DNA of 32,000 bases from Xylanibacter ruminicola 23 (GCF_000025925.1 NC_014033.1:2100001-2132000), one strand, 5' to 3'; counted from the first letter of the stretch, positions 2,631-29,794 are shown. The notes: generated from the sequence alone by a model not told the origin. Numbers and translations: made by a program.

Positions 2631-4958
2631 ATGCAGATGATGGAGTTTGAAGAGGTAATCAATGATGAAATTTCTGTGGTAGTAGGTATAGTAACTGCCA
2701 TATTGGGTATATCGTATCCTTTACTCTTGCAGGTGATTGAGAGAATCGATACAAAATATAATTCGCGTGCCATAATATCCCTACTATGCAGATCCTATCA
2801 ATACAGATTGTTTGTAGGAATACTCTGCCTAGATGTTATGCTTCTATTTATATCGGTAATCTTACAAGAGTTTGCAGAACTAGAACTGATAGGAAATACA
2901 CTTAGATATGTTTCTATGGGAGGCTCTCTACTGTTAGTAGTATGCTTCTTCTCTCTTTGCAAAAAGATAATGATGTTTTATCGTGCAGATAAGTTAGCTG
3001 CCTATTTTGAAAAAAGCGACCATTATAAGTTCTCTATCATAAGGCTTCTAAATAACAAACATCATAAGCCATGTAGGTTGGCAAGAATTTGGCTAGCAAG
3101 GAATCTTCTTCTAGAAATTCCTAAAACGGAATTGGCTGCATGGACAGACTTTATGAAGTATCTTATTTCAACAGATTCTGGTGATTTAATTGTTGATAGC
3201 TATCAATATCTTTACTCTCGAATACGCCTCTATCGTTCTTGTTATGACAAAAAAGAACCTATTGTTTACAACAAATACATTAACAAGGCAGTAGTTGCGA
3301 TTAATTCTGCTATATGTAAATCATCAGAACGTCAATTCTCGTTTACAAACTCTGTAGCTATGTTGTCAGGTTATAGTGGGCAGTATGATGGAAAGATAAA
3401 TGGTGTTGAACTGAGGAATACCTGTTGGAGATGTCTTATAGAAATGATATATACCGACCGCATGGATTTGCTGTACGATTATTGGGAGTATGCCGACCAA
3501 AGATTAAGCCTATTTCTCAAAAGGAAACAAGGCAGTGAGAGTGATGAAAGATACATCGCGAAATATAAGGAGTTCTTTATATTCTTATGTGCGCATTTGT
3601 TATATAGCAAAAAGCACGAAGCGTTATCTAGATTGTTGTTTTATAGTCATAACATACCTCCTATGTACGATATGCTACCTAATAATTTTGTTGAGGTATT
3701 CAGGTGGTATACCAAACTTTACCAAGATTCTTTTCGTACAGGATTCATATACGAATCTCAGTACACATTCTATGATGACAGAGACCCATTAAGTTCGGGT
3801 ACTACAAGAAATGCAGCCTTGGACTATCTTGCAGTTCTTACCATGAGATTACTGTATATCCCTCCGATTTATTTCAATGATAATGTTTTTGTTTATAATG
3901 AAGAATACGAAAAGACTCCTATAGGTGTGAAGAGCTATATTGATGCGTGTAATGATTTGATTATAAGAGCGGAAGCATTGGATCAAAACATCCTTAATAA
4001 ATTATTCTCTAAGTCTCAGTATAAAAGCAATATGGTAGTTGTTGATTTCCTGAAAGGATATTTGCAGCATCTGAATTCTCAGGCTCAAATAATAGAGAAA
4101 ACTCAAGAGATAAGCCCTGATATCATTAAAAAGGACAAGACTATAGTCGCGGCTCATTTGGAGCGATATATTTCCGAGTTTAGTGTATTTCTGACATCAA
4201 ACACAATAATGCCGGAATTTGATGCGGAGAATGTTACTGATGCTTTCCACAAGTCGATACAAATGAATAGTTGTACTAGCAAGCAGATCTATCCTTCGAA
4301 TTATTTTAAGGAAGGCCAGATTGTTGGTATAGCCAACTTTGCAGAAGCCATTTCTGATGAGATTAATTATAATTTTGTTAGAGGTATTGATACATGGTTT
4401 ATGGCACTTGGTGGCAGCCCTATAAATATTTCTAGTCAAAATATGTATGAGGCAATCTATAAACTGTGCCCTGATGTGGATAATGATGTGCTTTTATATT
4501 TTGGTTATAAGGAGTCCTTTGTTCATCTAATGGGTAATCATTATAAAGAGGATGGTGGCGTGTCTACTGTTGATGACAGAGTGATATATTTCCTTCCGGA
4601 TATTATTCCGTTCAATAACAGGCTGATAGTGGTGGATAAACGAAAAATGCCCAAACTGGCATTACGCGAACCAAAAGAAGATACAAGGAGACTTTTCCAA
4701 TATGAAAGGATATCTGCGAATTATCCTATATATTGGGGATTGGTAGACCTAAAAAATGATTCTGTGTTACGAAAAGAACTATTGAATAAAAACTATGATA
4801 TTAATGATTTGAAATCACAAAGTTATTTAAGTATATACCTATATGCTGATTTCTACATACCTAGTGATTCCATCAGATGCCATATTGCAATGATTGATTC
4901 TTACTCATCAGAGAAAGATGAATTGGATAAAATCAGAAAGATAAAGTTAAATAATTAG
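2631..4958 (+). CDS. Hypothetical 775-aa membrane-anchored protein (about 3 N-terminal TM helices plus a large soluble domain of unknown function)
   Basis: Long ATG-initiated ORF. Hydrophobic stretches are VVVGIVTAILGISYPLLLQVI, LFVGILCLDVMLLFISVILQ and GGSLLLVVCFFSLC. I recognise no catalytic motif in the remaining ~650 aa. Confidence 0.8.
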   Translation: MQMMEFEEVINDEISVVVGIVTAILGISYPLLLQVIERIDTKYNSRAIISLLCRSYQYRLFVGILCLDVMLLFISVILQEFAELELIGNTLRYVSMGGSLLLVVCFFSLCKKIMMFYRADKLAAYFEKSDHYKFSIIRLLNNKHHKPCRLARIWLARNLLLEIPKTELAAWTDFMKYLISTDSGDLIVDSYQYLYSRIRLYRSCYDKKEPIVYNKYINKAVVAINSAICKSSERQFSFTNSVAMLSGYSGQYDGKINGVELRNTCWRCLIEMIYTDRMDLLYDYWEYADQRLSLFLKRKQGSESDERYIAKYKEFFIFLCAHLLYSKKHEALSRLLFYSHNIPPMYDMLPNNFVEVFRWYTKLYQDSFRTGFIYESQYTFYDDRDPLSSGTTRNAALDYLAVLTMRLLYIPPIYFNDNVFVYNEEYEKTPIGVKSYIDACNDLIIRAEALDQNILNKLFSKSQYKSNMVVVDFLKGYLQHLNSQAQIIEKTQEISPDIIKKDKTIVAAHLERYISEFSVFLTSNTIMPEFDAENVTDAFHKSIQMNSCTSKQIYPSNYFKEGQIVGIANFAEAISDEINYNFVRGIDTWFMALGGSPINISSQNMYEAIYKLCPDVDNDVLLYFGYKESFVHLMGNHYKEDGGVSTVDDRVIYFLPDIIPFNNRLIVVDKRKMPKLALREPKEDTRRLFQYERISANYPIYWGLVDLKNDSVLRKELLNKNYDINDLKSQSYLSIYLYADFYIPSDSIRCHIAMIDSYSSEKDELDKIRKIKLNN

Positions 4959-5025
4959 ATTTTGACAATATTACTTGCTTTATTACGCAAAAAAAACTTA
5001 TTAATTAAAAAAAATATTGATTAAT

Positions 5026-5058
5026 TTATATAATAATCAAAATAAAAATGTAACTTTG
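5026..5058 (+). promoter_or_regulatory. Candidate promoter for the 89-aa/345-aa gene pair
   Basis: TAACTTTG (5051-5058) matches TAnnTTTG, 42 nt upstream of ATG 5100. A TTTA (5026-5029) lies 21 nt upstream as an imperfect -33 element. Confidence 0.3.
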
Positions 5059-5099
5059 CAGCAAAATTGTAGCAATAATTCATTCATTCTAAGGCTATT

Positions 5100-5369
5100 A
5101 TGGGAAAAATGTCTATTGTTGATCCCGCATTAAACAAGGGGTACGGAATGCTTAGCGTTCTAGAGCAGAGTATTTCTCCTGCTGAGGTAAGGCGCTTGGA
5201 ACGTTTGGGGTATATTGAAAATGCAATATCTCCACAAGGAGCAACATGGCGACTTTCTGCAAAAGGAAAGCGTATGCGTAAGAATCTCATGAAAGGTAAT
5301 TCGTTTGCCATGCGATGCAGTGATTTCTTCTTCAAGCATGTGTTACGTTATAATGTGAGCTTGGAGTGA
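5100..5369 (+). CDS. Small 89-aa basic protein, possibly winged-helix-like
   Basis: ATG ORF whose TGA (5367-5369) overlaps the GTG (5366-5368) of the next ORF, suggesting translational coupling. The LERLGYIE...WRLSAKGKR segment resembles a wHTH recognition/wing region, but this is weak. I prefer it over the antisense ORF 5084..5335. Confidence 0.5.
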   Translation: MGKMSIVDPALNKGYGMLSVLEQSISPAEVRRLERLGYIENAISPQGATWRLSAKGKRMRKNLMKGNSFAMRCSDFFFKHVLRYNVSLE

Positions 5370-6403
5370 AAACGTATTATGTTTTATGGGTGCCCACATT
5401 GTCGGAACTAAAGCACCCCTTTTACTGCAGAGAAGAAGTTAATCATAAGTTAGAAGATTCAAAATGTCTTGGTGGTTATCATTTGAAGGGGCGAATAGAT
5501 TCGTCCCTTGATATTGAGATAGAGTACCGTAGGACGGGAGTCTATGGCCTATGGGAAAAGTTTATAGGCAAAAAGCCTGGTGTTATAAGACTGCATAAAG
5601 AGTCGGATATACTCAAAAGGGGATTTGTGCAGTATTCGAGTGAATTGCCAGAAACTGAACTCGATGAAATTCAAAAAGGATTGTGCGGAGTCCTAAAGTC
5701 GCCTATCTATCATTTTATAAAAGAATTCTTCCATAACCACACTCACCATCATGCTTCACAAGATAGCTTGTTGCAGGCATACGCAAGCCAGGAAATGGTG
5801 GATTTGAATTCTACATATGAAGAAATAACGCTTCACTATATCCATCAGTATCGGGATTTATTGATTGACTTCAATGAAGAGACTTCAGAACAGATTGTCC
5901 TTCTAAAAAATCGATTAAACCATGCTCGTCAAGTTAAGCAAAGCATAAATGCATTAGGCGATATCGTTAAGGCCGGCGACGACCTTAAGGGACAATTGGG
6001 TTATATGGATTTCCTGATACAGAGACTTGCTAGACCCTATAGCATACCGAAGGGATTGAGAAACGAGATTGAATTATTAAGAAACACAACTCGACAGATA
6101 TTAGATGATGCAAATACCTCATATAATGTGTCAACGGCAGCCTTGGGGATTAAATACGGCATTCAGGGTATTAGATTTGGATGTTGGGGCATAATTGTTA
6201 GCTGTGCGCTTTTTGCAATTTCTACCTATATCACCTGTAGCAACCATACTATTGAGGATGCTGTTGAGAGAGCTAAGCAGGAAATCATTAAGAGAGATAG
6301 TACTAATTATAAGCAAGTTACGGATTCAATACGAAACGACGTAAGCAAGGTAAAACACAATATTGATAAACTACAAAAGGAGGTCAGAAAACAAAGAAAG
6401 TAA
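5366..6403 (+). CDS. Hypothetical 345-aa protein with a His-rich patch, a C-proximal TM helix and a C-terminal coiled coil
   Basis: GTG start overlapping the upstream stop. HNHTHHH patch, hydrophobic segment FGCWGIIVSCALFAISTYI and a K/E/Q-rich tail. I recognise no family. Confidence 0.65.
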   Translation: MKTYYVLWVPTLSELKHPFYCREEVNHKLEDSKCLGGYHLKGRIDSSLDIEIEYRRTGVYGLWEKFIGKKPGVIRLHKESDILKRGFVQYSSELPETELDEIQKGLCGVLKSPIYHFIKEFFHNHTHHHASQDSLLQAYASQEMVDLNSTYEEITLHYIHQYRDLLIDFNEETSEQIVLLKNRLNHARQVKQSINALGDIVKAGDDLKGQLGYMDFLIQRLARPYSIPKGLRNEIELLRNTTRQILDDANTSYNVSTAALGIKYGIQGIRFGCWGIIVSCALFAISTYITCSNHTIEDAVERAKQEIIKRDSTNYKQVTDSIRNDVSKVKHNIDKLQKEVRKQRK

Positions 6404-6411: not shown

Positions 6412-6749
6412 TGCAAAAAACGGTCGATATCCACTCCACCCAATTAGCTAAATCGGAGCATGTTTTTAGGAACGGCCTCTGTCCTATACAAAAACAGATA
6501 ACGGCCAAAATTTTCTTCTGTTATTGCTGCCATTGTACTTAAATATTTAATTCGGCAGCCGCTCCAGCTATGCTGGCTTCGCTCGTCAAAGAAAGGTAAT
6601 CACTTTATTCAGCCCCTGCCGCTCGGCTATGCCGCTTTCATAAAGAAAGAATACGTCTTTTTTTCATGCTTACGCCATTAGGATGAACTAATCAGAAAAG
6701 TGAACGGATATCCCCGTTTTGGGTGGGTGGATATCGACCGTTTTTTGCA
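6412..6749. mobile_element. MITE-like non-autonomous element (~338 bp) with ~31-bp terminal inverted repeats
   Basis: TGCAAAAAACGGTCGATATCCACTCCACCCAA (6412-6443) versus its reverse complement at 6719-6749 (TTGGGTGGGTGGATATCGACCGTTTTTTGCA); one single-base indel. There is no ORF inside. The interior carries two related ~35-bp units (gccgctccagctatgctggcttcgctcgtcaaagaaagg / gccgctcggctatgccgctttcataaagaaag). Confidence 0.55.
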
Positions 6750-6750
6750 A

Positions 6751-6963
6751 ATGGACACCAACACACGTCTGGCCATGCTGCAGATACTAGAAGAAAGGTA
6801 TGAGAGGAAGTCCGTTATCATCGTCTCTCAGCTGCCTATTAATAAATGGTATGACTACATTGGAGATCCCACTCTGGCCGATGCCATCATGGACAGATTG
6901 GTGTCAAATGCGAATAAAATTGAATTAAAAGGTGATTCTATGCGTCAGAAAAAGAAAAAATAA
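6751..6963 (+). pseudogene. istB: istB remnant (C-terminal 70 codons only)
   Basis: Encodes MDTNTRLAMLQILEERYERKSVIIVSQLPINKWYDYIGDPTLADAIMDRLVSNANKIELKGDSMRQKKKK, identical to the C-terminus of the intact IstB (13108..13839). In the track ORF 6700..6963 the first 17 residues are read out of the MITE-like repeat. Confidence 0.85.
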
Positions 6964-7072
6964 TTATCTTTGCACCCAGTTAGGCAGAGTCGATGATCAT
7001 GGTACCGTTTGCAGCGATACGGACGGTACCGATTACAGTGTTACACTTGGTACCGATACAGCGATATCAGCA
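6751..7072 (+). mobile_element. Truncated IS21-family copy (istB 3' end plus istB-proximal terminal repeat region)
   Basis: Near-identical by eye to the reverse complement of 12976-13320 in the intact copy. I saw two substitutions plus the absence of one 23-bp subterminal repeat unit. It ends ...GATATCAGCA at 7072, like the intact element's terminus. Confidence 0.85.
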
Positions 7073-10000
7073 TCTAACTTCTCCCACAATATCTCTTTCC
7101 CCGTCCATTTCAAACTTTCCACGTTCCTTAAACCTTATATAGCAGGCATTAAACTTCTCCTTAGGCATCTTCTTTTTCAGCAACTCAAAGAAGTTCAAAT
7201 CATGTGTAGTCATCACAATCTGTCTATCAAGCGAGAATGCTACATTCCTCAGCAGGTCTATCATCGACAATATATTAATGTCATCCAACGCCTGTATCGG
7301 GTCATCTATAAAAACGCACCCTACATCCTGTCCGTCATCTGTCTTCGCAAATAGAGCCTTTGCCATAAATATACAGAACGAAAGAATATTTACCTGGGCT
7401 GTACTAAAGTATAACGTCGGGACAATAGTATCGTTCCCTTCCGTCTTATTTCTCATATAGACGTTCAGTCGTGGCTTCGTCAAACTAAAATCACATTCAA
7501 ACCGTATCTCTTTATATTCTGGATGTGGGTCTATCGTATTATATAATCGCTGAATTTGATCAACTTGGAAAAAATTGGCCACATAGTCTTTGAGATATTG
7601 CTGGAGTCTCTCAATTTCATCTGATACAGCCTCATGATTACTCTCACTCTGAGATATTCTTTCCTTCATCTCCTTGATATCTTTCTTCACCTGTTGCTGC
7701 TGGTTATATTTCCTCGCAATTCCTAACATCGTCAAATATTCGCCCAGCATTGTCAGTTTCTTCTCAATCAAAGCCGATTCCTGTCGAAGCTTTGTCTTGT
7801 TTTCTTCAAACAACTGCACAATATCCCCAGCCGCTGTATCACTCGTAATTTCAGCGACTTTACACTCTTTTTTTAAGAACCGTAGAGTCTTGAAATATCT
7901 TTCTGCCAGAATCTCTCTTTCTTTATTCTTTTTATCATACTCTTCTTCTAACGCCACTTCTTTACTCAAATCAGCATGTTGTTCCTCCTTCAACGTCTTG
8001 CATTCGGCATTTGCCTCATTGATTTGTTTGTCATATTGGGCTATCGTTTCCTTCAAGTCGTGTATACGCGAACTCCAAAAATGCAGCGTCAAATCATCTG
8101 CGGTATCGTTTCCCAAAATCCGCTGATACTCCAGATAATCTTCTTTATTCTGCGTCTCGCTTATTACTTTCTGAGCCTCTATGCGCTTCCCTTCTTTCGC
8201 TTTCTTTTTTCTCTCAAGCAATTCAAGCGCCTTATCATTTTCTTCAATAGACTTATCCCTCTCATGGATTTCTTTTGCCAACATCTCCTTACTTTCAGCA
8301 TACTGTTTCTCAACCTGCTCCTTTGTCAGGTCTTTGAATCTTGAGTACTCCCCATCCACCTGTTCTTGGTTCATTCTGATGACTTTGTCTGCTTCTCGTA
8401 AGGCAGCGTTCACCTTTTCTTGCTCCCCATTCAAACGATTCAATTCCTGAACAGCATTTGCCACAGCTTCATCGATGACCTTATCAAATTGTTGATACCA
8501 TACCTCTCTTTCTTGATGGTCACGTTTATTTGCCTCTTTCAATTCTTCCCTTTTGGCAATAGCTTGTGCAACAGCTTTAGGCACCGCTTTGTTGTCTTCA
8601 ATACTCCTCAACAGATGTTCCACATTGGCGTAGTCATGGCCGCACAGTGGGCATACGCCTGTCTTCAACTCACTCACCATTTCTCTCGAACGATTCACGA
8701 GTTGGCTTACCTGGTTCTGAAATGCAGTCTGCTGATCAATACTTTTGGTCAATTCCGCAATTTCCATGTCACGACCGGAAATTCTCTGGCTCAGAACCAC
8801 TACGCGTTTCGATTCCTCTTCAAATCCTTCAATCTCAGCATCCACTTTCCTGCCATACACTTTCTGTTGTATGCCGCGTAGGCGGTTCATCTCTTTATTC
8901 TTTGTATCAATGCTTACCTTTTTCTCTGCAATTATTCCCGACAGTTCTGTTTTTTCCTTCTGTTTCAGGCTAATCTCTTTCAGGCAGCTTTGATATTTTG
9001 CATAGTCTGTATCTAAACATTTTTTCTTATTCTCAACGATATCTAACTGTGCCTTCTGTTTCTTTCGAGTTTCTTCTATACTGCTGCGTTCTTTTTCCAG
9101 CTTAGAGATTTGCTCTGCTAATGTAATCAGTTCATTGTCGCATGCGGTTATTTCTTTTTTCTTGGTATCAATCACTGTCCACAACTCCCTATACTGAGGG
9201 TACTTTTCCACCAGTTTCTGTAGTCGCGTCAGTCCGTTTACATGGTCCTTCCGTTCATTTCCGAGTTTTTCAACAAGGGCCAACAATTCTTTCAGTCTGA
9301 CAATTTGATTCAATTGTGTCCGCAGAATGGATATTTGTTTATCAATCTCTCCAATGGCTTTCAAATGCTCCGAAATATGATCCACAGCTATCAGACCATC
9401 ATACTCTCTTTCAATCTTTTCGCAATTTTCTAGAGCGTCATCTACCTGTCTCTTCGTTGCGTTCTCCTTTCCGGTTTTCTGATCGACTTCCATCGCAAGT
9501 TTTGCCAGGTTGTCGGCATCTATCTTCTGCTTCCAGCCTAATTTAACGCCCAAACTATTAAGGTCTGCCGCCATCTTGTCAAGGCGCTCAACTATGTGTT
9601 CATCTATATCGTTCTGCAGTTGCTTTTTCAGGTTATTGAGTTCTCTCGTCAGCGCACCTTTCTCTAGGGCCAGAGATTTTAACTTGGTTTTCAATTGCGA
9701 ATGATAGTCCAACAGGTCTTGCGACTCATGAAAATTTTCCATAAACAACTTAAACCTCGTCTCTGCATTATTTACAGAGAGGAATTCTGAAAACCAGTCC
9801 TGCGACAGGATAGCCTCCGAGAAAAACTTATTATGTCCTTCGCCTGTTAGCAGACTCTTCTCCTCATCCTTTGAGATGATTCTGTCCACCACACCGTTCT
9901 TGTATCCTTCTATGTCTAGTCTTATATGAATATCCTCTTCAGGCAGTTTCTTGTTGTGTATAAAACTGCTGAATTCCGATAGGCGGTTCTCGTTCTTCAT

Positions 10001-10213
10001 ATTCTCACTGAAGTTACTCAACTTCAGGCGGCGAATATTACTAGTCATTCCGAACTCGATGGCGTCAAATAGTGAGGTCTTTCCAAATCCATTGGGCGCA
10101 TAGACCGACACGAAGTTGGCACAACCCTTGTCTGCAAAACGTTGGTTTACAAACGAGAGTTCCACATCATCAAACAGGCGGAAAGCCTTGATTTTTATTC
10201 CCTTTAGTTTCAT
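7067..10213 (-). CDS. SMC/Rad50/SbcC-like coiled-coil ABC ATPase with a central zinc hook (LmuB-like / ABC-3C ATPase). The 3' end is fused to the IS21 terminus.
   Basis: Walker A APNGFGKT (K45). About 700 aa of K/E/Q-rich heptad sequence. Central CPLCG (nt ~8655..8636). C-terminal signature-like FSTAQ, Walker B CVFIDDP, D-loop ALDD and H-loop MTTHD. The last Cys codon (7072..7070) and the TGA (7069..7067) lie inside the IS21 terminal repeat. Confidence 0.8.
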   Translation of the reverse strand: MKLKGIKIKAFRLFDDVELSFVNQRFADKGCANFVSVYAPNGFGKTSLFDAIEFGMTSNIRRLKLSNFSENMKNENRLSEFSSFIHNKKLPEEDIHIRLDIEGYKNGVVDRIISKDEEKSLLTGEGHNKFFSEAILSQDWFSEFLSVNNAETRFKLFMENFHESQDLLDYHSQLKTKLKSLALEKGALTRELNNLKKQLQNDIDEHIVERLDKMAADLNSLGVKLGWKQKIDADNLAKLAMEVDQKTGKENATKRQVDDALENCEKIEREYDGLIAVDHISEHLKAIGEIDKQISILRTQLNQIVRLKELLALVEKLGNERKDHVNGLTRLQKLVEKYPQYRELWTVIDTKKKEITACDNELITLAEQISKLEKERSSIEETRKKQKAQLDIVENKKKCLDTDYAKYQSCLKEISLKQKEKTELSGIIAEKKVSIDTKNKEMNRLRGIQQKVYGRKVDAEIEGFEEESKRVVVLSQRISGRDMEIAELTKSIDQQTAFQNQVSQLVNRSREMVSELKTGVCPLCGHDYANVEHLLRSIEDNKAVPKAVAQAIAKREELKEANKRDHQEREVWYQQFDKVIDEAVANAVQELNRLNGEQEKVNAALREADKVIRMNQEQVDGEYSRFKDLTKEQVEKQYAESKEMLAKEIHERDKSIEENDKALELLERKKKAKEGKRIEAQKVISETQNKEDYLEYQRILGNDTADDLTLHFWSSRIHDLKETIAQYDKQINEANAECKTLKEEQHADLSKEVALEEEYDKKNKEREILAERYFKTLRFLKKECKVAEITSDTAAGDIVQLFEENKTKLRQESALIEKKLTMLGEYLTMLGIARKYNQQQQVKKDIKEMKERISQSESNHEAVSDEIERLQQYLKDYVANFFQVDQIQRLYNTIDPHPEYKEIRFECDFSLTKPRLNVYMRNKTEGNDTIVPTLYFSTAQVNILSFCIFMAKALFAKTDDGQDVGCVFIDDPIQALDDINILSMIDLLRNVAFSLDRQIVMTTHDLNFFELLKKKMPKEKFNACYIRFKERGKFEMDGERDIVGEVRC

Positions 10214-10214
10214 G

Positions 10215-10634
10215 TCAGCCTTTATTTATCAGTTTCACTATCTTTGAACTCTTCTTGAAATCTTCCAACTCCATATAAACACTATCATCAAATGAATATT
10301 TGATATAGCGGCCTATCACCTCTTCAAAATCACCCATGCGATAATCCTTGGTTGATATGACTATCTTTCGCGACGAGACGGTGTCGTGTTCTATCTTATA
10401 TTTTAAGGATATATCGTTCGCTGCATCCTCTTCAGCAAGATAGAATAGATAGTGGTTCCAGCGTTCAAACTCGTCTTCTATCATTCGCTGGCGTTCGGCT
10501 ATGTCATTCCTGATGTCTTGCCATTTATCCCGCAAATCATCATGATTCAATGGCTTCGTGATAAACACATCTACCTTCGACTGGATGTCAAACACATCCT
10601 GATCAAACATTTCGTAAAACTCTGTTATATTCAT
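10215..10634 (-). CDS. Small acidic helical protein, 139 aa (middle-component / LmuC-like by position)
   Basis: Its ATG overlaps the upstream TGA as ATGA (10631-10634). Its stop is 1 nt from the ATPase ATG. D/E-rich with no recognisable motif. The assignment is positional only. Confidence 0.6.
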   Translation of the reverse strand: MNITEFYEMFDQDVFDIQSKVDVFITKPLNHDDLRDKWQDIRNDIAERQRMIEDEFERWNHYLFYLAEEDAANDISLKYKIEHDTVSSRKIVISTKDYRMGDFEEVIGRYIKYSFDDSVYMELEDFKKSSKIVKLINKG

Positions 10635-11896
10635 ATCTTGCTCGTTATCAAATTTCTGTAGTATTCCATCTTATCACCGTCATAATCCCTGATTTCGTCT
10701 GTAAACGCTACCATCGCATCCTTAAAAAAGTGAGCATTCACATATACAAAACCTCCCATGTTCTCTCTGCCGTTCCTCGCTATGTTAAACTCTTGTTTGG
10801 GCTCTAATCCTATGGCTATATCCAATATATCCTTACCCCTTACGTCCTGCTTGTATCCCTTGGACTGTATGCCTCCTACCACAAACACTACGTTCACGTC
10901 ACTCACGGTTCCAAGTACACTCGGGTCTAGTGCACTAGGCGCTGAGTAGATATCAAAGTCTTTTTCAGACTGCACATACTGAAATCGGGGAAACACTTCA
11001 TCCAGATTGTTGGCAGCATCCAATCCCCATACGGCTTTCAGTGCTACAATGAACTCTCCAAATTTTACCCAATCATCTTTCTGTAGTTCTGAACCCAACA
11101 GATAATTATTAGTTTTGCGGCTTTTCTGAAAAGCATCGTAGCATTGCAGTGGTGATAAGTCCAACATTCCTGCTCTATAATGAGACATCATCATGAGTAG
11201 AGTTTTCAGTTTCTCTTTGGCTCCAAGATTGTTGTCGAAATTGAACATCTCATTCATGAATACCTCAAAATTACACTGGTATATTGTTGGTAATCCATTC
11301 TCTGCTATCACTCGTTCAAAGCAACTCCATGGTATCATCACGTTCTTGCCCAGTTGCTCTTTTTCTTCGCTTGCTGCAAGTTTCATGTGTACGCCCAACA
11401 AGTGATGGTTGTCGTCAAATATTCCACCACCCGACATACCATTCAACTCTTCTTGCTTGATATGATTCGGATACTTATATTCCTCAAAGTTATGGTCATA
11501 CGTTCCTAACCATGTATTAAAGTCATGCAGTTTACAACTATTGGCCTTACCATAGCTGTTCTGGTTGTTTGGATAGCCAGTATGCCAGTGGACAGCACCG
11601 TTTTGGCGGATGTTACTTGGCACAAACTGCACTATCTCACTATCATCCTTTTCTACAATGAGAATAGCAGCATCAAGTTCTTCATTATAAATGATTCGTT
11701 TAGCCTTGACGGTCTTATTTGTGAATGGGGATGTGGATAGGAAGTCGAAGATTATTTCGTCAACAGTCTTTCCTTTCACCACATGATATGCAGTCAATAT
11801 ATAGAAACAGTCATCAGCCAATGGCTTTATGATTACGCCACTGCCATTGGCTACTCTGACCGTTACTGATTTCATCTCGTCCTGATAATTCATCAT
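10631..11896 (-). CDS. Trypsin/chymotrypsin-fold serine protease with a ~230-aa C-terminal domain of unknown function (LmuA-like protease-type effector)
   Basis: Catalytic triad in the canonical order and spacing: H38 (LTAYHVV), D75 (ELDAAIL), S155 (NGMSGGGIF). The ATG directly abuts the stop of the upstream MBL gene. Confidence 0.75.
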   Translation of the reverse strand: MMNYQDEMKSVTVRVANGSGVIIKPLADDCFYILTAYHVVKGKTVDEIIFDFLSTSPFTNKTVKAKRIIYNEELDAAILIVEKDDSEIVQFVPSNIRQNGAVHWHTGYPNNQNSYGKANSCKLHDFNTWLGTYDHNFEEYKYPNHIKQEELNGMSGGGIFDDNHHLLGVHMKLAASEEKEQLGKNVMIPWSCFERVIAENGLPTIYQCNFEVFMNEMFNFDNNLGAKEKLKTLLMMMSHYRAGMLDLSPLQCYDAFQKSRKTNNYLLGSELQKDDWVKFGEFIVALKAVWGLDAANNLDEVFPRFQYVQSEKDFDIYSAPSALDPSVLGTVSDVNVVFVVGGIQSKGYKQDVRGKDILDIAIGLEPKQEFNIARNGRENMGGFVYVNAHFFKDAMVAFTDEIRDYDGDKMEYYRNLITSKI

Positions 11897-12892
11897 TCAA
11901 AAGTACCTTAGTCGCTCCGCTAAGTCCGGATAATCCTGTTTATCTTGTTCAGTAAATATCTTCTCTGCCCTTTCAGGATAGTTAAACCACAGTTTGGCAT
12001 CGGTCTTACCCACTATATACGATATCACTTCTTTATCAGGGTGGCCGAACTTCAAGCCATTAGTTGAGACAATATAATTCTCTGCCACTATCTTCTCTAA
12101 TAGTTCTGGGGAAAAGTTGTTTTTGCTGCCATGATGCGACAGTTTTAACCATTTACATTTCAGAGGTAGCTCTATTCCTGCTGTATGTTCCAGTGTGTCC
12201 ATCACTACATCTATGTTGGCATCTCCCAGCAGTAAGCAGTTCTCGCCGTCCTTTGTTTGAAGCAGGAAAGCCATCGAAGCATCATTCTCTGGTGTGCAGG
12301 TGCCTCGTTCGTATGGCTCTTTCAATAGCTTTTTGATGTCCTCATCATAACGGTCATTTGTAGTGTTATTCAGTTCGTCACCAATGTCCTCCGCTATTTT
12401 GTTATGGGCTTCCGCCGTTGGTGCCAGAGCTATAAGTCTTCCCCATTCAAACTGAAATACTCTTCCTTTGACAATCTTATTTTCAAACGGCACATTGTTT
12501 TCTTCCAGTATTTCCTTTAGCGAAGCCACCTGTGCGGAAGTATTCTCCAATCCCTTTCCGATGTTTACTTCTACATCGTCGTTCATCCAAATCTGCTTCA
12601 CGAACTCCGATGATGGAATTTCTTCATGGTACCACGCCAATACGCCTCCCACATGGTCATCATCTACATGTGTAATGATTAGCAGGTCTATAGCCTTACC
12701 TGCTTTTTTCAGTTTTTCCAACTTTTGTTTCAGATTACCATCCTCTGTTCTTCCATATCTACCACGATGGATATAGGTCCTAGGAGTACCACCATCTATC
12801 ATGATGATATATTCTTTTCCATCATAACAGATTGTTACGAAGATACAGTCTCCGTAATATGCCTTTATCACTTCTATATCAACTGTTATCAT
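11897..12892 (-). CDS. Metallo-beta-lactamase-fold hydrolase, 331 aa (ComEC/Rec2-type MBL variant, putative nuclease)
   Basis: ITH75-V-D-D-D-H80-VGG (a variant of HxHxDH), LLLGDA and LSHHGSKNN motifs in the MBL order. It is the first gene of the coupled operon. Confidence 0.7.
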   Translation of the reverse strand: MITVDIEVIKAYYGDCIFVTICYDGKEYIIMIDGGTPRTYIHRGRYGRTEDGNLKQKLEKLKKAGKAIDLLIITHVDDDHVGGVLAWYHEEIPSSEFVKQIWMNDDVEVNIGKGLENTSAQVASLKEILEENNVPFENKIVKGRVFQFEWGRLIALAPTAEAHNKIAEDIGDELNNTTNDRYDEDIKKLLKEPYERGTCTPENDASMAFLLQTKDGENCLLLGDANIDVVMDTLEHTAGIELPLKCKWLKLSHHGSKNNFSPELLEKIVAENYIVSTNGLKFGHPDKEVISYIVGKTDAKLWFNYPERAEKIFTEQDKQDYPDLAERLRYF

Positions 12893-13070: not shown

Positions 13071-13107
13071 ATGATCATCGGCTCTGCCTAACTGGGTGCA
13101 AAGATAA

Positions 13108-16052: not shown

Positions 16053-16670
16053 CTATCTCTTGGCAAGAGGCAACGCTTCTTTCAACAAGCGCCTTTTCTC
16101 TTCATCGTATACCATTGAAATCTTACCAACCGGTTTTCCTCGGCCTTTTACATTTTCAAACAATTCTATCACAACATCTTCGGGCGAATAAATAATAAAG
16201 GCTCCTAACAATGTTCCATATACACATTTCAATTCCTTTCTAACAGGTTTTGGAGACACAAGAGACTTTAATCGAACTCTATCCTCATCGCGGTTTTTGA
16301 GGTTTTTCTTTTTCTTCATTTCAACAGCCAGGTAATTTGGCGCTTCACCTCTGCTTTGTATCAAAAGATCGCTCACCATATCTTTTGGCAGATGTTTACT
16401 ATTCTCGTATCTCTTAATTTCTCCATTACCCATACGATTATATTCTACATCTGCATAATACTTAGCAAAAAATGGTTTTTCTTTTCTCGCATCATATCTA
16501 CGCATAATGTTCTCCATATGAAGAGCCAATCTGGCGCAGATATTTCGTTCCGACACATCAAATTTGATATTCTCATAATCAAACTCATAAAGATACTGCA
16601 ATGCTGGTATCAATACCTCATCAAGAATAATCTCTTGTACGCTCTGTTCTCTAATTTTTCTTTCTTCCAT
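16053..16670 (-). CDS. 205-aa PD-(D/E)xK-like (restriction-endonuclease-fold) protein
   Basis: Motif arrangement: a helix with E (ERNICARLALHMEN), ...VSD-LLIQ..., ...YLAVEMKKKK (D...ExK). It shares its first 8 codons (MEERKIRE) and its leader with the 289-aa gene. Confidence 0.5.
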   Translation of the reverse strand: MEERKIREQSVQEIILDEVLIPALQYLYEFDYENIKFDVSERNICARLALHMENIMRRYDARKEKPFFAKYYADVEYNRMGNGEIKRYENSKHLPKDMVSDLLIQSRGEAPNYLAVEMKKKKNLKNRDEDRVRLKSLVSPKPVRKELKCVYGTLLGAFIIYSPEDVVIELFENVKGRGKPVGKISMVYDEEKRRLLKEALPLAKR

Positions 16671-16860
16671 AATTTTGATTTTTAGTTATTGAATATCAAT
16701 TATTCCTCACCTTTGCTTTTGTTAAGCAGGCCCCACTTGATTGATTGTATGAGAGTCATCCAAGTGGAGGCCTGCGTTATAACGAACTTTTTATATTGAT
16801 ATCTCACGACATCTCGTACCTTGATGCCACGAACCCGTCCCCTATCAGGATGGCGTGGTT
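16646..16860 (-). repeat. Leader repeat, copy A (~215 bp: upstream region plus first 25 nt of the 205-aa CDS)
   Basis: Aligns with 19843-20050 at roughly 90% or better identity by eye (about 11 substitutions and 2 short indels). Contains a 50-nt bulged hairpin at 16726-16775. Confidence 0.85.
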
Positions 16861-17303: not shown

Positions 17304-18329
17304 TTACTTCTCCTCCTTAAAATACAACTTATAGTATTTCATTCCTTTTTCTTCATCATAGCCTTTTTCCAGGAGATTCTCCCCACCTCGGATGCTGATG
17401 CCAAAATTATCATCCAGCTTGATGTTTGTCATATTGCCGAACGAGAGCTTCTTTAATGCCAGTGGTTCCGTTTTAAAATGGTCCACCACGCCATTACCAT
17501 CCTCTGTGATTGCATCTTGATTATACTTCAAAAAGCCCTGCGCGGTCTTTTCATCATCAAAAACACAGCCAACCATCTCTTTCAAGTCAAAATCGCCTCT
17601 TTTCAGAAAGTCCGTCAACCTATTGAGCATCATTGCCCTTTCATTCTTATCTACACTCTCTGTTAGCGACTTCACATAATCCTTACATACATTAATGGCC
17701 CTTTTCGTCTGATTATAACCATCATTTCTTGGAACCACATGCAAGAAGTCATCAATCCAGTATTTAGCTTCAGCACCACGTTTTGTCCTATCTACAACAG
17801 CCACAACATAACCATGTTCTTTTTCTATATTAAATATCAAGCAGCCTTTATCCAGTTTTTGCACATTTACCCCCATATCAAAATCAACAGACACATCGTC
17901 CTTTTCGTGCTTCACCTTCAAAAAACGTTCTTTATTCTCTGCTTTAAACAATCCTATCGCATCCACTAGTTTATGGTCTACTTCGCAGTTTTTAAACAGT
18001 ACCACAAAAAAATCACCTCCATTAATTTTTGGATGATTACTATGCTCATATAAACATCCTGCGATATCTATCGACTTCTCTACCAGAGTATTGTTGTCAT
18101 CAAAGATAGCAGAAACATGAGAATAAACCTCATTCATCTTTAACTCAGCCTCATGGTAGAAGTGGCAGAGAGCCTCAAGTTTAAATGGAGATAGGAAATA
18201 ATATTTTAGCATATTCTCCATCGCATCATCTATATACAACGAGTGGGAAGAGGTCTTTATCCCCTCTTCCGCCACTCTATTACCAACATAATGCACTATA
18301 GCGTTTGCTATTTTTATATTCTCATTCAT
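17304..18329 (-). CDS. Nucleoid-associated protein NdpA/YejK-like, 341 aa
   Basis: Resembles the YejK layout: N-terminal I-x-x-A-I-V-H-x-V-G-N, then GGDFFVVLF..., VNVQKLDKGCLIFN and AEAKYWIDDFLHV. This is pattern recognition from memory, not a search. Its start overlaps the upstream stop by 8 nt. Confidence 0.55.
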   Translation of the reverse strand: MNENIKIANAIVHYVGNRVAEEGIKTSSHSLYIDDAMENMLKYYFLSPFKLEALCHFYHEAELKMNEVYSHVSAIFDDNNTLVEKSIDIAGCLYEHSNHPKINGGDFFVVLFKNCEVDHKLVDAIGLFKAENKERFLKVKHEKDDVSVDFDMGVNVQKLDKGCLIFNIEKEHGYVVAVVDRTKRGAEAKYWIDDFLHVVPRNDGYNQTKRAINVCKDYVKSLTESVDKNERAMMLNRLTDFLKRGDFDLKEMVGCVFDDEKTAQGFLKYNQDAITEDGNGVVDHFKTEPLALKKLSFGNMTNIKLDDNFGISIRGGENLLEKGYDEEKGMKYYKLYFKEEK

Positions 18330-19011
18330 ATTTATTAAGATGATTTTTTAATACTCCAATTACCGCTTCCTTAATATCTTTCCACAAGCCATCCTCCTCA
18401 TTCTTGGTCATTTCTATATCCTGTCTTACGCAAAAATGAACAGTCTGCCCATAAGTAAAAAGATTCACAACCGTAGAACACAATAGAAGCATTGAAAACA
18501 GCCCAAAGAACAGAAGTGTAATATATATAAAGAAGTTTAATATTAAACAAACACATTCATTATCCACTGTCAGTTTCTGTTTCACAATCAAGTGAACACA
18601 AAACGCCAGTATCAAAGTAAAACATTGTATCAAAACCGATGATGCAAACACACAACTTGTGGTCTGAAAAAAACTCAGTTTCTGTTTGGTGCTCTTTAAT
18701 GGTTCCGACATACGTCCAATCAATTTCAAATCCGAAACGCCAATAATAAGCGCATACCCAGCAAGACTAAATCCTAGCAAACTAGGAAATGTTGATAGTA
18801 CGGTCGAGGCTAAATCATCTATATACTCAAATATCCGATTAGCCTCCCTGTTAAAAAAGAGCAAACATCCCCCAAACAGACAAGTTAAAATCAAACCAAA
18901 CTTAAACACAAAAGACTTTCGTATTTTGTCGATAGTATATCCATTACGGAATATCCCATCAATACTCACTTTGTGTCTCGTTCTCAGATCATTATCATCA
19001 TCCATTACCAT
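18322..19011 (-). CDS. 229-aa integral membrane protein (4 predicted TM helices)
   Basis: Hydrophobic segments are FVFKFGLILTCLFGGCLLFF, LSTFPSLLGFSLAGYALIIGV, SCVFASSVLIQCFTLILAFCVHLIV and VCLILNFFIYITLLFFGLFSMLLLCSTVVNLF. It overlaps both neighbouring genes (14 nt and 8 nt). Confidence 0.75.
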   Translation of the reverse strand: MVMDDDNDLRTRHKVSIDGIFRNGYTIDKIRKSFVFKFGLILTCLFGGCLLFFNREANRIFEYIDDLASTVLSTFPSLLGFSLAGYALIIGVSDLKLIGRMSEPLKSTKQKLSFFQTTSCVFASSVLIQCFTLILAFCVHLIVKQKLTVDNECVCLILNFFIYITLLFFGLFSMLLLCSTVVNLFTYGQTVHFCVRQDIEMTKNEEDGLWKDIKEAVIGVLKNHLNKYE

Positions 19012-19867
19012 TATTTCTAAATAAGTTCACCACTTGCGTCACTATATTCTTACGTAGAAGTGTCTCCTTGCATCTAATTGCAAGTGTTTTGGGGTGCCAA
19101 TCTGTAACAATCTTAGATGATACACCATCTTTTATAATTGAGGCCGTAACCTTTCCATAATGCTGAGCCAATCCGATAGCACCTTTAAGAATTCTCACAT
19201 TAACATCTATGTTACCGGTATTATCTGGAGTACCTTCTATTTTCAATCGTTTCATATGAGCAGCCTTCATCTGGTCATCCATAAATTCCATCGCTTCATC
19301 GCCATTGTCCTGATTACTATACGATACGTCAATCTCAAGTTTCTTTACGATATCAGCCTGGAATATCTGTTCAAAGTCCGACTCATCCTGTTCTTTTGTC
19401 ACCAAGAAATCCTCCCCTTCTTCTATAACCTGTGCTACAGCCTCATTTAAGAACTTCTCTACAGCATTTGCGCTGAAGCCACTTTTCATCACAAAAGCCA
19501 TTCGGTGTGCACCTGGTACAAAGAAGAAATCAGATTCCTTCAGATTGGGGAATGTATTTCTTGGAAGGTCAACACTCTCCACCTCCATATTCTCCAGATT
19601 AATCCAATCCTTGCCATCGATCACAGTATATGTTGAGATGCTTCCATACAATACGTCCCAGTTTCTGCCATTCACTTCAACCACATTATTAAACAGCGTA
19701 CGTAAAATCATATGCCTATCCCCTCTAATTGGGATCGAAACCTTTTCCTGGTTTATCTTCTTAATAATGTCAGTATAAGCAGCATCACCAGTACGGCTGT
19801 CCGACATCAACTTTACGTTAATCATCTGAACTTTATAGTTCAGTTCTCTAATTTTTCTTTCTTCCAT
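18998..19867 (-). CDS. 289-aa hypothetical soluble protein, first gene of the cassette
   Basis: ATG ORF with good coding texture. No motif recognised. Its N-terminus MEERKIRE and upstream ~190 bp are duplicated at the 205-aa gene. Confidence 0.75.
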   Translation of the reverse strand: MEERKIRELNYKVQMINVKLMSDSRTGDAAYTDIIKKINQEKVSIPIRGDRHMILRTLFNNVVEVNGRNWDVLYGSISTYTVIDGKDWINLENMEVESVDLPRNTFPNLKESDFFFVPGAHRMAFVMKSGFSANAVEKFLNEAVAQVIEEGEDFLVTKEQDESDFEQIFQADIVKKLEIDVSYSNQDNGDEAMEFMDDQMKAAHMKRLKIEGTPDNTGNIDVNVRILKGAIGLAQHYGKVTASIIKDGVSSKIVTDWHPKTLAIRCKETLLRKNIVTQVVNLFRNNGNG

Positions 19868-20050
19868 AATTTTGATTTTTAGTTATTGTACATAGATTAT
19901 TCCTCCCAGGTTTTGCTTTTGTTAAGCAGGCCCCACTTGAGTGATTGTATGAGAGTTATCCAAGTGGAGGCATGCGTTATGACAAACTTTTTATATTGAT
20001 ATCTCACGACATCTCGTACCTTTGATGTCACGTACCCGTCCCCTGGCAGG
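19843..20050 (-). repeat. Leader repeat, copy B
   Basis: See copy A. The hairpin is at 19926-19975. It starts ~30 nt downstream of the stop of the last polysaccharide-locus gene (20078). Confidence 0.85.
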
Positions 20051-20077: not shown

Positions 20078-21091
20078 TTACTCCAAGCACTGCTGCTTGT
20101 TGTCCTCATACCAATCTGCTAATGCTTCTTCGAATGTCCATTTCATTTGATAACCCGACGAAGCCATTTTCTTGCCACAGATGTTGGTTGAGATCTGCAG
20201 TTTCTTTACTCTTGCGGGACAGATGCCCATGGGGCTACCTACCATCTTAGCACAAACTGCCATTGGCATAATGATACTATTGGGGATATATGGCACTGAT
20301 TGCGACAGGCCTGTTACCTTTTTCATTGCCTTTACTATCTGCTCGATGGTATAGGCTGGTTCAAAGGTGCAGTTATAGATGTCAAACGATGTCTTACGCT
20401 CCTCTACATTCCATAGGATAAAGCGCACCAACTCTTTTACATACACACAGGCCTTGATGGTATCCTTACGACCAGGATAGGCAAATGTATGTTTGCGGAT
20501 GCCCCAATACAGTCGAGAGAAGTTGCCGTTTTCGCCACGACCGAATACCACACCTGGGCGAACGATTGTTAGTTTTCTGCCTTCACCCCCCTTCTGCCAT
20601 GCCATATGAATCTTCTCTGCCACCAGTTTCGATATACCATAAGGTGTGTTTGGTGTAGGCAGCGTATCCTCAGTCTTCAGTTGTTCAGAGGCGCCATATG
20701 GTGCTATGCTCGATGTAAACACCATATTCTTAATGCCATATTTCTCAGCAAATGCACACACGTTCTCAGCTCCACGGATATTCGTTTCAAAATACTCTAT
20801 ATCCTCGTGACCAGGTGTACGATGCACAGCTGCGAAGTTAAATATCACATCCTCTGCTGTCGGCGTAAAAGACAGTTCTCCTATTGGTTTCCTGATATCG
20901 CACTCTATATAAGTTGATCCCAGCTGCTCACCATCCCTAACCGCAGACTTATAGTTCTTCACTACAGGGTTAGGAGTTCCAGGCTTTACTATATCCAGAT
21001 TCCACACCTTGGCCTCTGGATGTACTTCGTTCAAAAGATTCGTCAGATGGGTACCAATAAAACCGGTACCGCCAGTAATAATATAATTCAT
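20078..21091 (-). CDS. NAD-dependent epimerase/dehydratase (extended SDR family)
   Basis: N-terminal GGTGFIG Rossmann motif and a YGISK (YxxxK) catalytic motif. 337 aa. Confidence 0.85.
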   Translation of the reverse strand: MNYIITGGTGFIGTHLTNLLNEVHPEAKVWNLDIVKPGTPNPVVKNYKSAVRDGEQLGSTYIECDIRKPIGELSFTPTAEDVIFNFAAVHRTPGHEDIEYFETNIRGAENVCAFAEKYGIKNMVFTSSIAPYGASEQLKTEDTLPTPNTPYGISKLVAEKIHMAWQKGGEGRKLTIVRPGVVFGRGENGNFSRLYWGIRKHTFAYPGRKDTIKACVYVKELVRFILWNVEERKTSFDIYNCTFEPAYTIEQIVKAMKKVTGLSQSVPYIPNSIIMPMAVCAKMVGSPMGICPARVKKLQISTNICGKKMASSGYQMKWTFEEALADWYEDNKQQCLE

Positions 21092-22203
21092 GATTTAAAC
21101 TCCTTGTATTTTTGCTCTACAAATTCTTTAATTTCTCTCTTAAAACGTTCTTCTGAAAAACCCTCAGCCCACTCTCTACAAACTCGTGGTGAGAAAGGCT
21201 GCTCACCCATACTCTCAAAATGCTTCACTGCCTCCATAATTGCCTCTGGCGTTTGCTCTTTAAAGAATAATCCTGTTTTACCATCACTTACAGTCTCCAG
21301 CGAGCCACCGTGACCATAAGCTATTACCGGTGTTCCGCAGCTCTCTGCTTCAATGGGTATCATACCAAAATCCTCGTCTGGTGCAAACACAAATGCTTTG
21401 GCATGCTGCATTTTCTCTTTTAATACATCAAAGGGCTGATAGCCCATTACTGTTACATTAGGGCCTGCAAGCTTTTTGTATTCTTCCAAATTAGGGCCAC
21501 CACCTATAACCACCAATTTCTTGTCTGGCATCTGATTAAATGCCTCTATAACAGCATCGATCTTTTTATATGCCACCAACCGACTACTGGTTAGGTAATA
21601 GTCTTGTTTATCCTCACATAGTTCAAATCGTGAGATATCAATGTTAGGGTGTATCGTCACAGAATCTCTACGGTAAGTCTCCTTAATTCGACGACCTACG
21701 TAGTCAGAGTTACTGATATAATAGTCCACACGGAAACTGCTCAGCATATCCCATTTTCTGATTCTATGCAACAGGTATCTTACCAACCAACTCTTTAAGC
21801 CCTCGGTCAAGTTCGACTCTTCCAGATACTCATTATACATATCCCAAACATAGCGTATCGGAGAGTGAACATAACTGATATGCAGTTGATCCTCCTTGGT
21901 TAAAACACCTTTTGCCACACAATGCGATGAAGAGATAACAACATCATACCCGCGGAGATCAAACTGCTCAATAGCAAACGGGAACAACGGCAGATAAGCA
22001 CGATGTTTCTTTGCACCAAATGGCATCTTCTGTATAAAAGATGTATGTACCTTTTCCCAAGGGATGCCCAATTCATCACAAATCTCTTTTTTGGCTACAA
22101 GCGTAAATATATCTGCATCAGGGAATACGTCATATATCGCCTTCACCACTTTATCAGACCCACCAACCGTAACGAGCCATTCTTGTATGATTGCTACTTT
22201 CAT
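21088..22203 (-). CDS. Glycosyltransferase family 4 (GT-B)
   Basis: C-terminal EDFGMIPIEAESCGTPVIAYGHGGSLETV (E-x7-E type motif). 371 aa. Overlaps the downstream gene by 4 nt. Confidence 0.8.
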   Translation of the reverse strand: MKVAIIQEWLVTVGGSDKVVKAIYDVFPDADIFTLVAKKEICDELGIPWEKVHTSFIQKMPFGAKKHRAYLPLFPFAIEQFDLRGYDVVISSSHCVAKGVLTKEDQLHISYVHSPIRYVWDMYNEYLEESNLTEGLKSWLVRYLLHRIRKWDMLSSFRVDYYISNSDYVGRRIKETYRRDSVTIHPNIDISRFELCEDKQDYYLTSSRLVAYKKIDAVIEAFNQMPDKKLVVIGGGPNLEEYKKLAGPNVTVMGYQPFDVLKEKMQHAKAFVFAPDEDFGMIPIEAESCGTPVIAYGHGGSLETVSDGKTGLFFKEQTPEAIMEAVKHFESMGEQPFSPRVCREWAEGFSEERFKREIKEFVEQKYKEFKS

Positions 22204-22210
22204 AATACCA

Positions 22211-23284: not shown

Positions 23285-23376
23285 ATCATTATTCGATTCC
23301 TATTATTTATATCTAGAGTACCTCCCCCCAATATACAAACCACTAGCAGAAAAGAAAGTCCATAAAATAAAAACAG

Positions 23377-25145: not shown

Positions 25146-25164
25146 GACTTTAATAGAAATCGTA

Positions 25165-26166: not shown

Positions 26167-26204
26167 ACTTTTTACATATTAAAATATTGACAAAATATCA
26201 AATA

Positions 26205-28696: not shown

Positions 28697-28699
28697 AAA

Positions 28700-29788: not shown

Positions 29789-29794
29789 ATGGAA

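Follow-up and report, generated by a model that had tools for sequence, protein, structure and literature searches.

We describe a four-gene operon of Xylanibacter ruminicola 23, found in the stretch GCF_000025925.1 NC_014033.1:2100001-2132000, hereafter called the window (the full 32,000 nt that were analysed). The operon is, in our opinion, a long-type Lamassu (ABC-3C) anti-phage/anti-plasmid system of the “Hydrolase-Protease” kind, in which a trypsin-like protease would activate a metallo-beta-lactamase (MBL)-fold hydrolase made as an inactive pro-DNase; we put the probability of this reading at about 0.78, every step of the mechanism being drawn by homology. The Lamassu architecture, the family assignment, and the likely protease-to-nuclease cascade have all been published before, and the locus is a further instance of them.

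The four genes (Table 1) are translationally coupled: the stop codon of the MBL gene abuts the start codon of the protease gene (TGAATG), the protease gene and lmuC share a 4-nt ATGA overlap (ATATGA), and a single nucleotide separates lmuC from lmuB (TGAcATG). A preliminary description of this DNA had already delimited this four-gene unit, and the positions, lengths, and junctions of its open reading frames (ORFs) came out identical when re-read on the sequence; the MBL, protease, and ATPase motifs that it listed are all present too, the catalytic residues of the MBL and of the protease being invariant in alignments of their homologues. It had also proposed the Lamassu/ABC-3C class, and indeed the PADLOC Lamassu models match all four proteins, the PADLOC and hidden Markov model searches giving matches far beyond chance.

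The protease is the LmuA of the system. It matches the PADLOC LmuA model PDLC03855 (3.5e-46, residues 2-396), Pfam Trypsin_2 (5e-13, residues 18-169) and, weakly, Avs1b; its triad H38/D75/S155 is invariant in 16 homologues. The trypsin-like domain occupies residues ~1-200, and residues ~200-421 form a C-terminal domain (CTD), of ~230 aa in the preliminary description, which had left it unrecognised; it is in fact CTD4 of ABC-3C systems, known to Pfam as PF20280. The window protease matches it weakly (E = 0.0096), and CTD4 is found in 13 of the 16 homologues, at best with E = 5e-10; the C-terminal half of the protease is, therefore, the docking domain of ABC-3C/long-Lamassu effectors. In the AlphaFold2 model of LmuA (predicted local distance difference test, pLDDT, 84.6), an HtrA/DegS-like protease domain is followed by a mixed helix/strand domain, as Haudiquet et al. 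2025 describe it for long LmuA CTDs. Foldseek, queried with the whole model, returned HtrA/DegS protease domains only, and a profile search of the Protein Data Bank (PDB) with the protease family gave nothing beyond generic serine proteases. Proteases with CTD4 make up a sizeable family, as the corresponding profile collects 457 representatives of 50%-identity clusters at E <= 1e-10, mostly 410-465 aa long.

The small protein that follows (pI 4.8) is assigned to LmuC by Pfam MComp1 (PF20289, 2.7e-13) and PADLOC PDLC03873 (2.9e-19). The ATPase matches the PADLOC LmuB model PDLC03865 at 3e-173 over residues 1-1035 of 1048; Pfam SMC_N and SbcC_Walker_B are both sub-threshold, and a PDB sequence search with LmuB found nothing at E <= 0.01. 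Its motifs are a Walker A (K45), C521-PLC-524 at mid-length, STAQ at 937, a Walker B VFIDD at 967-971, and H1004, and its residues 166-900, rich in E, K, L, and Q and with 5 prolines only, fit a coiled coil. According to Haudiquet et al. 2025, an hhhhDD Walker B together with exactly one CxxC marks long Lamassu; judged on its sequence by these criteria, LmuB is of the “long” type, in view of its hhhhDD Walker B, its single CxxC, and its length.

The MBL belongs to the same system. It matches the PADLOC models LmuA PDLC03854 (2e-78), RTasMBL (1.8e-47; the MBL partners of DRT reverse transcriptases), and Avs1a (4e-32; the MBL partner in AVAST type 1), as well as NCBIfam Avs1a (3e-47) and Pfam Lactamase_B. 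The preliminary description saw this gene as foreign to the canonical layout, a view that has to be abandoned given that PADLOC holds a Lamassu “LmuA” model matching it so closely; this supposedly extra gene is what defines an already catalogued Lamassu subtype. The protein carries the motifs H75-V-D-D-D-H80 and S252-HHGS, and H75, D77, D79, H80, D224, H253, and H254 are invariant in 49 MBL homologues. A PDB sequence search reached ComEC nuclease domains only among solved structures, with the HxDxDH motif and the SHHGS..GHP region aligned to ComEC, and the best Foldseek match of the model is the ComEC beta-lactamase-like domain 9ic4 (E = 4e-11), followed by the esterase Pce, two homologues that Tuck et al. 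2025 and Huang et al. 2025 also name. The MBL is a single compact domain without a docking domain, the CTD being located on the protease.

Two segments of the MBL deserve particular attention. Its AlphaFold2 model, built on 49 sequences (pLDDT 88.9; predicted template modelling score, pTM, 0.89), is confident except in exactly two places, residues 107-119 and 167-175, where pLDDT is below 50; the stretch from HxDxDH to D224 is ~47 residues longer than in the ComEC MBL domain. Each of these two loops contains, amid variable sequence, one near-invariant L-x-N-[T/S/A] motif, with L115 and N117 conserved in 92% and 96% of the 49 homologues in loop 1, and L174 and N176 in 98% and 96% of them in loop 2. 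So modelled, the window MBL would fit the loop-gated pro-DNase model known from other systems. Loop 1 is predicted, by analogy, to correspond to the cleaved loops of HamM and Avs1a and, since each loop holds a Leu-x-Asn motif analogous to I-[S/G]-N, the protease would be predicted to cleave after L115 and L174. In the distant MBLs of Shewanella and of L025, the first-loop motif reads G-S-N-T-S or T-N-Y-T-S, and the loop is longer.

The arrangement recurs in other genomes (the related contigs and loci compared with the window are labelled L001-L038). Three metagenome contigs encoding a ~99%-identical protease (L001-L003) harbour the same four genes without any insertion sequence (IS); by blastn they share the whole cassette with the window, the flanks being different, and the window proteins are 95.7-98.8% identical to these IS-free copies. 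The order MBL, protease-CTD4, MComp1, and ~1040-aa ATPase is kept in 8/8 non-identical full loci examined, at 26-99% identity, and syntenic loci span Bacteroidales, one metagenome-assembled genome of Bacilli, and a Shewanella conjugative plasmid as annotated in RefSeq. The distant relatives with the same order and tight spacing are L006 (65-73% identity), L005, L029, and L033 (42-62%), L031 (33-55%), and L007 (28-45%), to which L035 is added. Across the related loci, the MBL, the protease, LmuC, and LmuB diverge in step, and the MBL gene is always directly 5' of the protease gene. Because gene order is kept across relatives, the MBL belongs to the unit as a fixed component, not as a neighbour that comes and goes; the preliminary description had named a lack of synteny and a variably present MBL gene among the outcomes that would speak against it, and, synteny being conserved, neither is what we observe. 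A scan of a genome collection with the protease alignment yielded four full-length relatives and 20 other loci, mostly from cyanobacteria, which match the protease domain only and are uninformative on Lamassu synteny; a tblastn search of plasmids with the protease returned one distant match (Shewanella pS19501).

How such a system could work is suggested by recent literature. Millman et al. 2022 described an extended Lamassu family in which hydrolase and protease are among the domains replacing the LmuA endonuclease domain; in the Lamassu-like systems that they tested, mutations in the effector domain or in the SMC ATPase, or deletion of lmuC, abolished defence. According to Haudiquet et al. 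2025, the one validated long Lamassu, that of Bacillus cereus B4077, encodes Hydrolase-Protease effectors (the validation being that of Millman et al. 2022). In Cap4-type Lamassu, LmuB2-LmuC holds LmuA via its CTD, and LmuA is activated when it is released and oligomerises (Li et al. 2025, Haudiquet et al. 2025). According to Tuck et al. 2025 (Science, PMC12799240), Hachiman, AVAST, Lamassu, and DRT have repeatedly acquired a pair formed by an MBL and a trypsin-like protease; their work on Hachiman and AVAST showed that the MBL, encoded upstream of the fused protease, is a “gated” pro-DNase, cut after conserved isoleucines in two disordered insertions, and cJun-forced dimerisation of the Hachiman protease domain was enough for toxicity. 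The same model was drawn there for Lamassu, without a test in that system. Huang et al. 2025 (bioRxiv 2025.09.03.673762) found the same cascade, with KSS sites in one MBL group and I-S(G)-N in the other, and also name ABC-3C as a system that carries the module. Homologous MBLs from this module have been shown to cut DNA and to leave RNA intact, and the Hachiman/AVAST protease did not cut other proteins. Of the two possibilities raised in the preliminary description, dual effectors or a protease-activated MBL, it is thus the second that is favoured, the cascade being known for the same gene pair in Hachiman and AVAST, and the first is probably the wrong picture. Its remark that no substrate was defined for protease-type variants is outdated for the module, whose substrate is the partner MBL, and remains correct as regards direct demonstration in Lamassu.

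Transposed to the window, the cascade would run as follows. At rest, a LmuB dimer, joined at its CPLC zinc hook, and LmuC would hold LmuA via CTD4, the protease being monomeric and inactive, and the MBL would be made as an inactive pro-DNase whose loops 107-119 and 167-175 cover a ComEC-like di-metal active site. On meeting aberrant DNA, such as ends, palindromes, or fork structures, that arises while a phage or plasmid replicates, LmuB would hydrolyse ATP and LmuA would be released; oligomerisation through the CTD would then turn on the protease, which would cut both MBL loops, presumably after L115 and L174. The opened MBL would degrade DNA indiscriminately, resulting in abortive infection.

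Table 1. Location of the features discussed in the text (positions counted from the first nucleotide of the window).
Feature	Position	Strand	Basis
MBL-fold hydrolase, predicted loop-gated pro-DNase, 331 aa	11897..12892	-	PADLOC, NCBIfam, Pfam, AlphaFold2, Foldseek
LmuA, trypsin-like serine protease + CTD4, 421 aa	10631..11896	-	PADLOC, Pfam, AlphaFold2, Foldseek
LmuC / ABC-3C middle component 1, acidic, 139 aa	10215..10634	-	Pfam, PADLOC, pI
LmuB, long zinc-hook SMC/Rad50-like ABC ATPase, 1048 aa	7067..10213	-	PADLOC, motifs
Predicted gating loop 1, MBL residues 107-119, G-L115-E-N117-T-S motif	12536..12574	-	pLDDT <50, conservation
Predicted gating loop 2, MBL residues 167-176, E-L174-N-N176-T motif	12365..12394	-	pLDDT <50 (167-175), conservation
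Conserved cassette, 98.8% identical to L001-L003	7073..12939	-	blastn
Complete IS21-family element, IstA 517 aa, IstB 243 aa	12976..15649	-	Pfam rve/Mu-transpos_C_2, IstB_IS21
Truncated second IS copy, right end only, 98-100% identical	6750..7072	+	inverted repeats, sequence
Hairpin element, ~180-210 nt, two window copies	19862-20050, 16643-16851	-	repeats, folding

In the window, the cassette is bracketed by two inverted copies of an IS21-family element, with the right ends of both copies facing it. The complete copy lies upstream of the operon, 83 nt from the start codon of the MBL gene; each of its ends bears 23-nt GGTACCGAT repeats, and 4 bp of the target, ATTA, are duplicated. The truncated copy, which directly adjoins lmuB at the 3' end of the gene, breaks off at 6750 within istB and is shorter by one 23-nt GGTACCGAT unit. 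Native lmuB ends at 7073, and its last codon (Cys) and stop codon (7067-7072) are provided by the IS end: the IS-free copies end in GAA ATT AGA GGA TAA (EIRG, stop) and the window copy in GAA GTT AGA TGC TGA (EVRC, stop), with no change in length. As only the final Gly is changed to Cys and the frames are otherwise as in the IS-free copies, coding capacity is intact. On the 5' side, no Bacteroides-type TAnnTTTG box occurs in the 83 nt upstream of the operon and two occur in native DNA beyond the IS; the IS21 insertion may have separated the operon from its native promoter. An outward promoter borne by the IS was considered and rejected, the single TAnnTTTG match in its right end (13099-13106) being within chance expectation. 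A composite transposon made of the two inverted copies finds no support either: the full copy is flanked by an ATTA duplication of its own, pointing to a simple insertion, and the outer end of the other copy is missing; the arrangement resembles a decayed composite transposon all the same. A megablast search of plasmids with the IS found nothing. Exactly at the breakpoint of the truncated IS lies a 338-bp segment (6412-6749) with 32-nt inverted repeats that are 88% complementary, which may be similar to a miniature inverted-repeat transposable element; ~100 nt of it (6576-6675) match L037 and L038 at 74% identity.

Several points weigh against a functional Hydrolase-Protease Lamassu with a protease-activated MBL. 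We found no publication showing MBL cleavage in Lamassu, so that the cascade is extrapolated from Hachiman and AVAST. The loop motif is here L-x-N, whereas the sites shown experimentally are I-[S/G]-N or KSS, so that the P1 residues are predicted by analogy. Structures have been solved for Lamassu of the short type, which makes sequestration by LmuB/LmuC an extension to this subtype, and Haudiquet et al. 2025 describe the long LmuA CTD as bearing no similarity to known domains. With an IS sitting just upstream of the operon, it is uncertain whether the genes are expressed in this genome. Finally, the lmuB gene of L003 (L003:4655-7656) has suffered a frameshifting deletion of 145 nt (window positions 7820-7964 are missing), leaving ORFs of 766 and 250 aa in a sibling of the operon that was inactivated naturally; these cassettes therefore do decay.

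The last two points feed the idea that the operon is a decaying remnant, silenced or crippled in this genome by the IS21 insertions, which we deem rather unlikely. It draws on the 2.67-kb IS close to the first gene and the lack of a TAnnTTTG box in between, on the second IS end, which replaces the last lmuB codon and points antisense into the operon, and on the damaged sibling contig. However, all four frames are complete, at the protein identities to IS-free copies given above and with a single C-terminal substitution; the TAnnTTTG match within the IS faces the operon, though such matches arise by chance at a rate of ~1 per 1.5 kb, and read-through from the same-strand istAB genes is possible. 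This explanation bears, in any case, on activity in this host and not on the identity of the genes. The two catalytic proteins could, on the other hand, be parallel effectors, the protease degrading host or phage proteins and the MBL separately attacking nucleic acid or another phosphoester, with no proteolytic link between them. Both have complete catalytic residues, we found no publication on MBL cleavage in the Lamassu context, and hydrolase and protease are presented by Millman et al. 2022 as effector domains and no more; but the homologous pair forms a cascade in two unrelated sensors, Hachiman and AVAST, with a protease that spared other proteins, and the MBL of the window has the two low-confidence, motif-bearing loops that the gating model expects, has no domain that would couple it to LmuB/LmuC alone, and diverges together with the protease. 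We consider parallel effectors improbable.

It seems to us very improbable that the MBL is, like the phosphorylcholine esterase Pce, a phosphodiesterase or esterase with a small molecule or the cell envelope as its target, and not a nuclease. The Foldseek matches to Pce (2bib, 1wra) nearly equal those to ComEC, and the locus adjoins polysaccharide biosynthesis genes; yet the sequence searches and both aligned motif regions lead to ComEC, and the homologous MBLs of the module are DNases leaving RNA uncut, Huang et al. 2025 having pNP-PC and nitrocefin assays in their methods and concluding that their protein is a DNase. As for a housekeeping repair ATPase of the SbcCD/Rad50 type with unrelated neighbours, its probability is close to nil. 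LmuB does resemble SbcC in its length of 1048 aa, in the CxxC hook at its centre, and in its long coiled coil, it has weak NCBIfam matches to SbcC, Rad50, and SMC, and SbcCD has been proposed as the ancestor of Lamassu (Haudiquet et al. 2025); but it reaches 17 bits with the NCBIfam SbcC model, whose cut-off is 920, and the operon contains no SbcD/Mre11-like ORF. The housekeeping reading therefore fails: the ATPase is not a housekeeping SbcC, RecN, or RecF, the outcome that the preliminary description had named as one that would refute it. The full-length match to PADLOC LmuB, the constant adjacency of MComp1 and of the CTD4-bearing partner, and the occurrence of the cassette in differing genomic contexts at 99% identity all argue in the same direction. 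We retain a Hydrolase-Protease Lamassu with a presumably protease-activated MBL as the best description of the operon.

The surroundings of the operon are of interest in their own right. Upstream of the cassette and on the same strand, positions 20078-31974 (-) hold a capsule-type polysaccharide locus with GT1, GT2, and GT4 glycosyltransferases, an acyltransferase, and an epimerase; polysaccharide loci are determinants of phage susceptibility in Bacteroides. A related Lamassu cassette is located inside a glycosyltransferase operon in L029/L030 (1-15284), with gaps of 25 and 111 nt that suggest co-transcription with the polysaccharide genes, and L033/L034 is listed with the window and L029/L030 for this association between Lamassu and polysaccharide loci. 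Between the polysaccharide locus and the Lamassu cassette lie further genes. Three overlapping ones (17304-19867, -) encode a DUF4747 protein (289 aa), a 229-aa protein without family match, and an NA37 nucleoid-associated-like protein (341 aa); PADLOC gave no match for this trio, a possible uncharacterised defence cassette. Next to them, a 205-aa protein (16053-16670, -) has a weak PADLOC match to PD-Lambda-3_A (6.6e-07), and a 61%-identical homologue of it is encoded in L005 (18175-18711), ~3.4 kb downstream of the Lamassu cassette of that contig. On the other side of the operon, two ORFs of 775 and 345 aa (2631-6403, +), without Pfam or PADLOC match, converge on the cassette, and positions 1-2600 have no ORF of at least 80 aa on either strand.

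One copy of a conserved hairpin element lies directly before the trio and another before the 205-aa gene, the trio being located between the two; either copy overlaps the start of the gene that follows for nine codons (MEERKIRE.). The element, ~200 nt long, has the core GAGATGTCGTGAGATATCAATATAAAAAGT and a strong hairpin, GCAGGCCUCCACUUG...CAAGUGGGGCCUGC (fold z = -3.8), and a scan of the whole window at the Rfam gathering thresholds found no RNA family. The element is also found in unrelated contigs, at L031:174-353, L036:1227-1412, and L038:3533-3741, each time after polysaccharide genes and before differing defence genes: a 35%-identical Lamassu variant directly 3' of the same epimerase gene (L031), a Ppl-type PHP-ATPase (L036), and a region with RdrA/RdrB-like (RADAR-like) genes (L038). 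Directly 3' of the Lamassu variant of L031, a 784-aa AAA_15/AAA_21 ATPase and a 355-aa protein (L031:6357-9786) are probably another defence pair. The cassette looks like part of a defence hotspot of Bacteroidales that adjoins the 3' end of a capsule-type polysaccharide locus, and the hairpin element, which would precede the entry to this hotspot as well as each cassette in it, may serve in cassette exchange, as a recombination site, or as a common leader tying defence expression to the polysaccharide operon on the same strand. To our knowledge, such a polysaccharide-linked hotspot has no earlier description in Bacteroidales.

What could be new here is twofold. The MBL clade made of the window protein and its 48 closest homologues, which is linked to Lamassu wherever its context was examined, may use a cleavage code of its own, a Leu P1 in L-x-N-[T/S/A], once per loop; if so, protease-MBL pairs would be mutually matched and not interchangeable between systems. 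That both this cleavage code and the element-marked, polysaccharide-linked hotspot are real is a tentative proposal that we would not yet bet on. Otherwise, little changes for the field: the locus illustrates how a defence cassette can be bracketed by IS21 elements and points to a defence hotspot attached to polysaccharide loci. As a compact and intact long-type Hydrolase-Protease Lamassu, it does offer, with L115 and L174 as predicted cleavage sites, a first direct test in Lamassu of the pro-nuclease model established for Hachiman and AVAST.

Among known systems, the Hydrolase-Protease Lamassu of B. cereus B4077, compared here by its description, has the same four components as the window operon: an MBL-type hydrolase, a protease-LmuA, LmuC, and a LmuB of the long kind, in which a single CxxC goes with a Walker B of the hhhhDD form; unlike it, the window copy has a Bacteroidales-like host and is flanked by IS21 ends. 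The Bacilli relative L007 has the gene order of the window, at 28-45% identity. The operon of plasmid pS19501 of Shewanella baltica OS195, hence of a gammaproteobacterium, is annotated in RefSeq as an MBL fold metallo-hydrolase, an ABC-three component system protein, an ABC-3C middle component 1, and an AAA family ATPase (1059 aa); its genes overlap and are ordered as in the window, but its protease domain is 28% identical, and its MBL loop 1 is longer, with G-S-N-T-S in place of L-E-N-T-S.

The nuclease-protease Hachiman HamMAB of Pseudomonas fluorescens (Tuck et al. 2025) and Hachiman-trypsin-MBL (Huang et al. 2025) have in common with the window a ComEC-like MBL; their two flexible, motif-bearing insertion loops would have their counterpart in the two low-confidence segments of the window MBL. 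They differ in their sensor, a HamB helicase with an inactivated HamA nuclease where the window has an SMC-like ATPase and MComp1, and in their cleavage motifs, I-[S/G]-N or KSS where the window has L-x-N. AVAST type 1 (Avs1a MBL and Avs1b protease-STAND) has the same MBL-before-protease order, but its STAND NTPase senses the phage terminase, whereas the 421-aa window protease has no NTPase domain; the window MBL is a relative of Avs1a and not Avs1a itself, as it scores 161 bits against an equivalog cut-off of 420. SbcCD and Rad50-Mre11, the proposed ancestors of Lamassu, have a zinc-hook coiled-coil ABC ATPase of equal length together with the SbcD/Mre11 nuclease that the operon lacks. Lastly, the short Cap4 Lamassu (DdmABC of Vibrio cholerae and the Salmonella LmuACB structures) follows the same logic of sequestration and release by LmuA, LmuC, and LmuB, with a LmuB of ~600 aa against 1048 in the window and a different CTD fold and LmuC family; there, the effector is itself the nuclease, whereas in the window the protease would relay the signal to a separate one.

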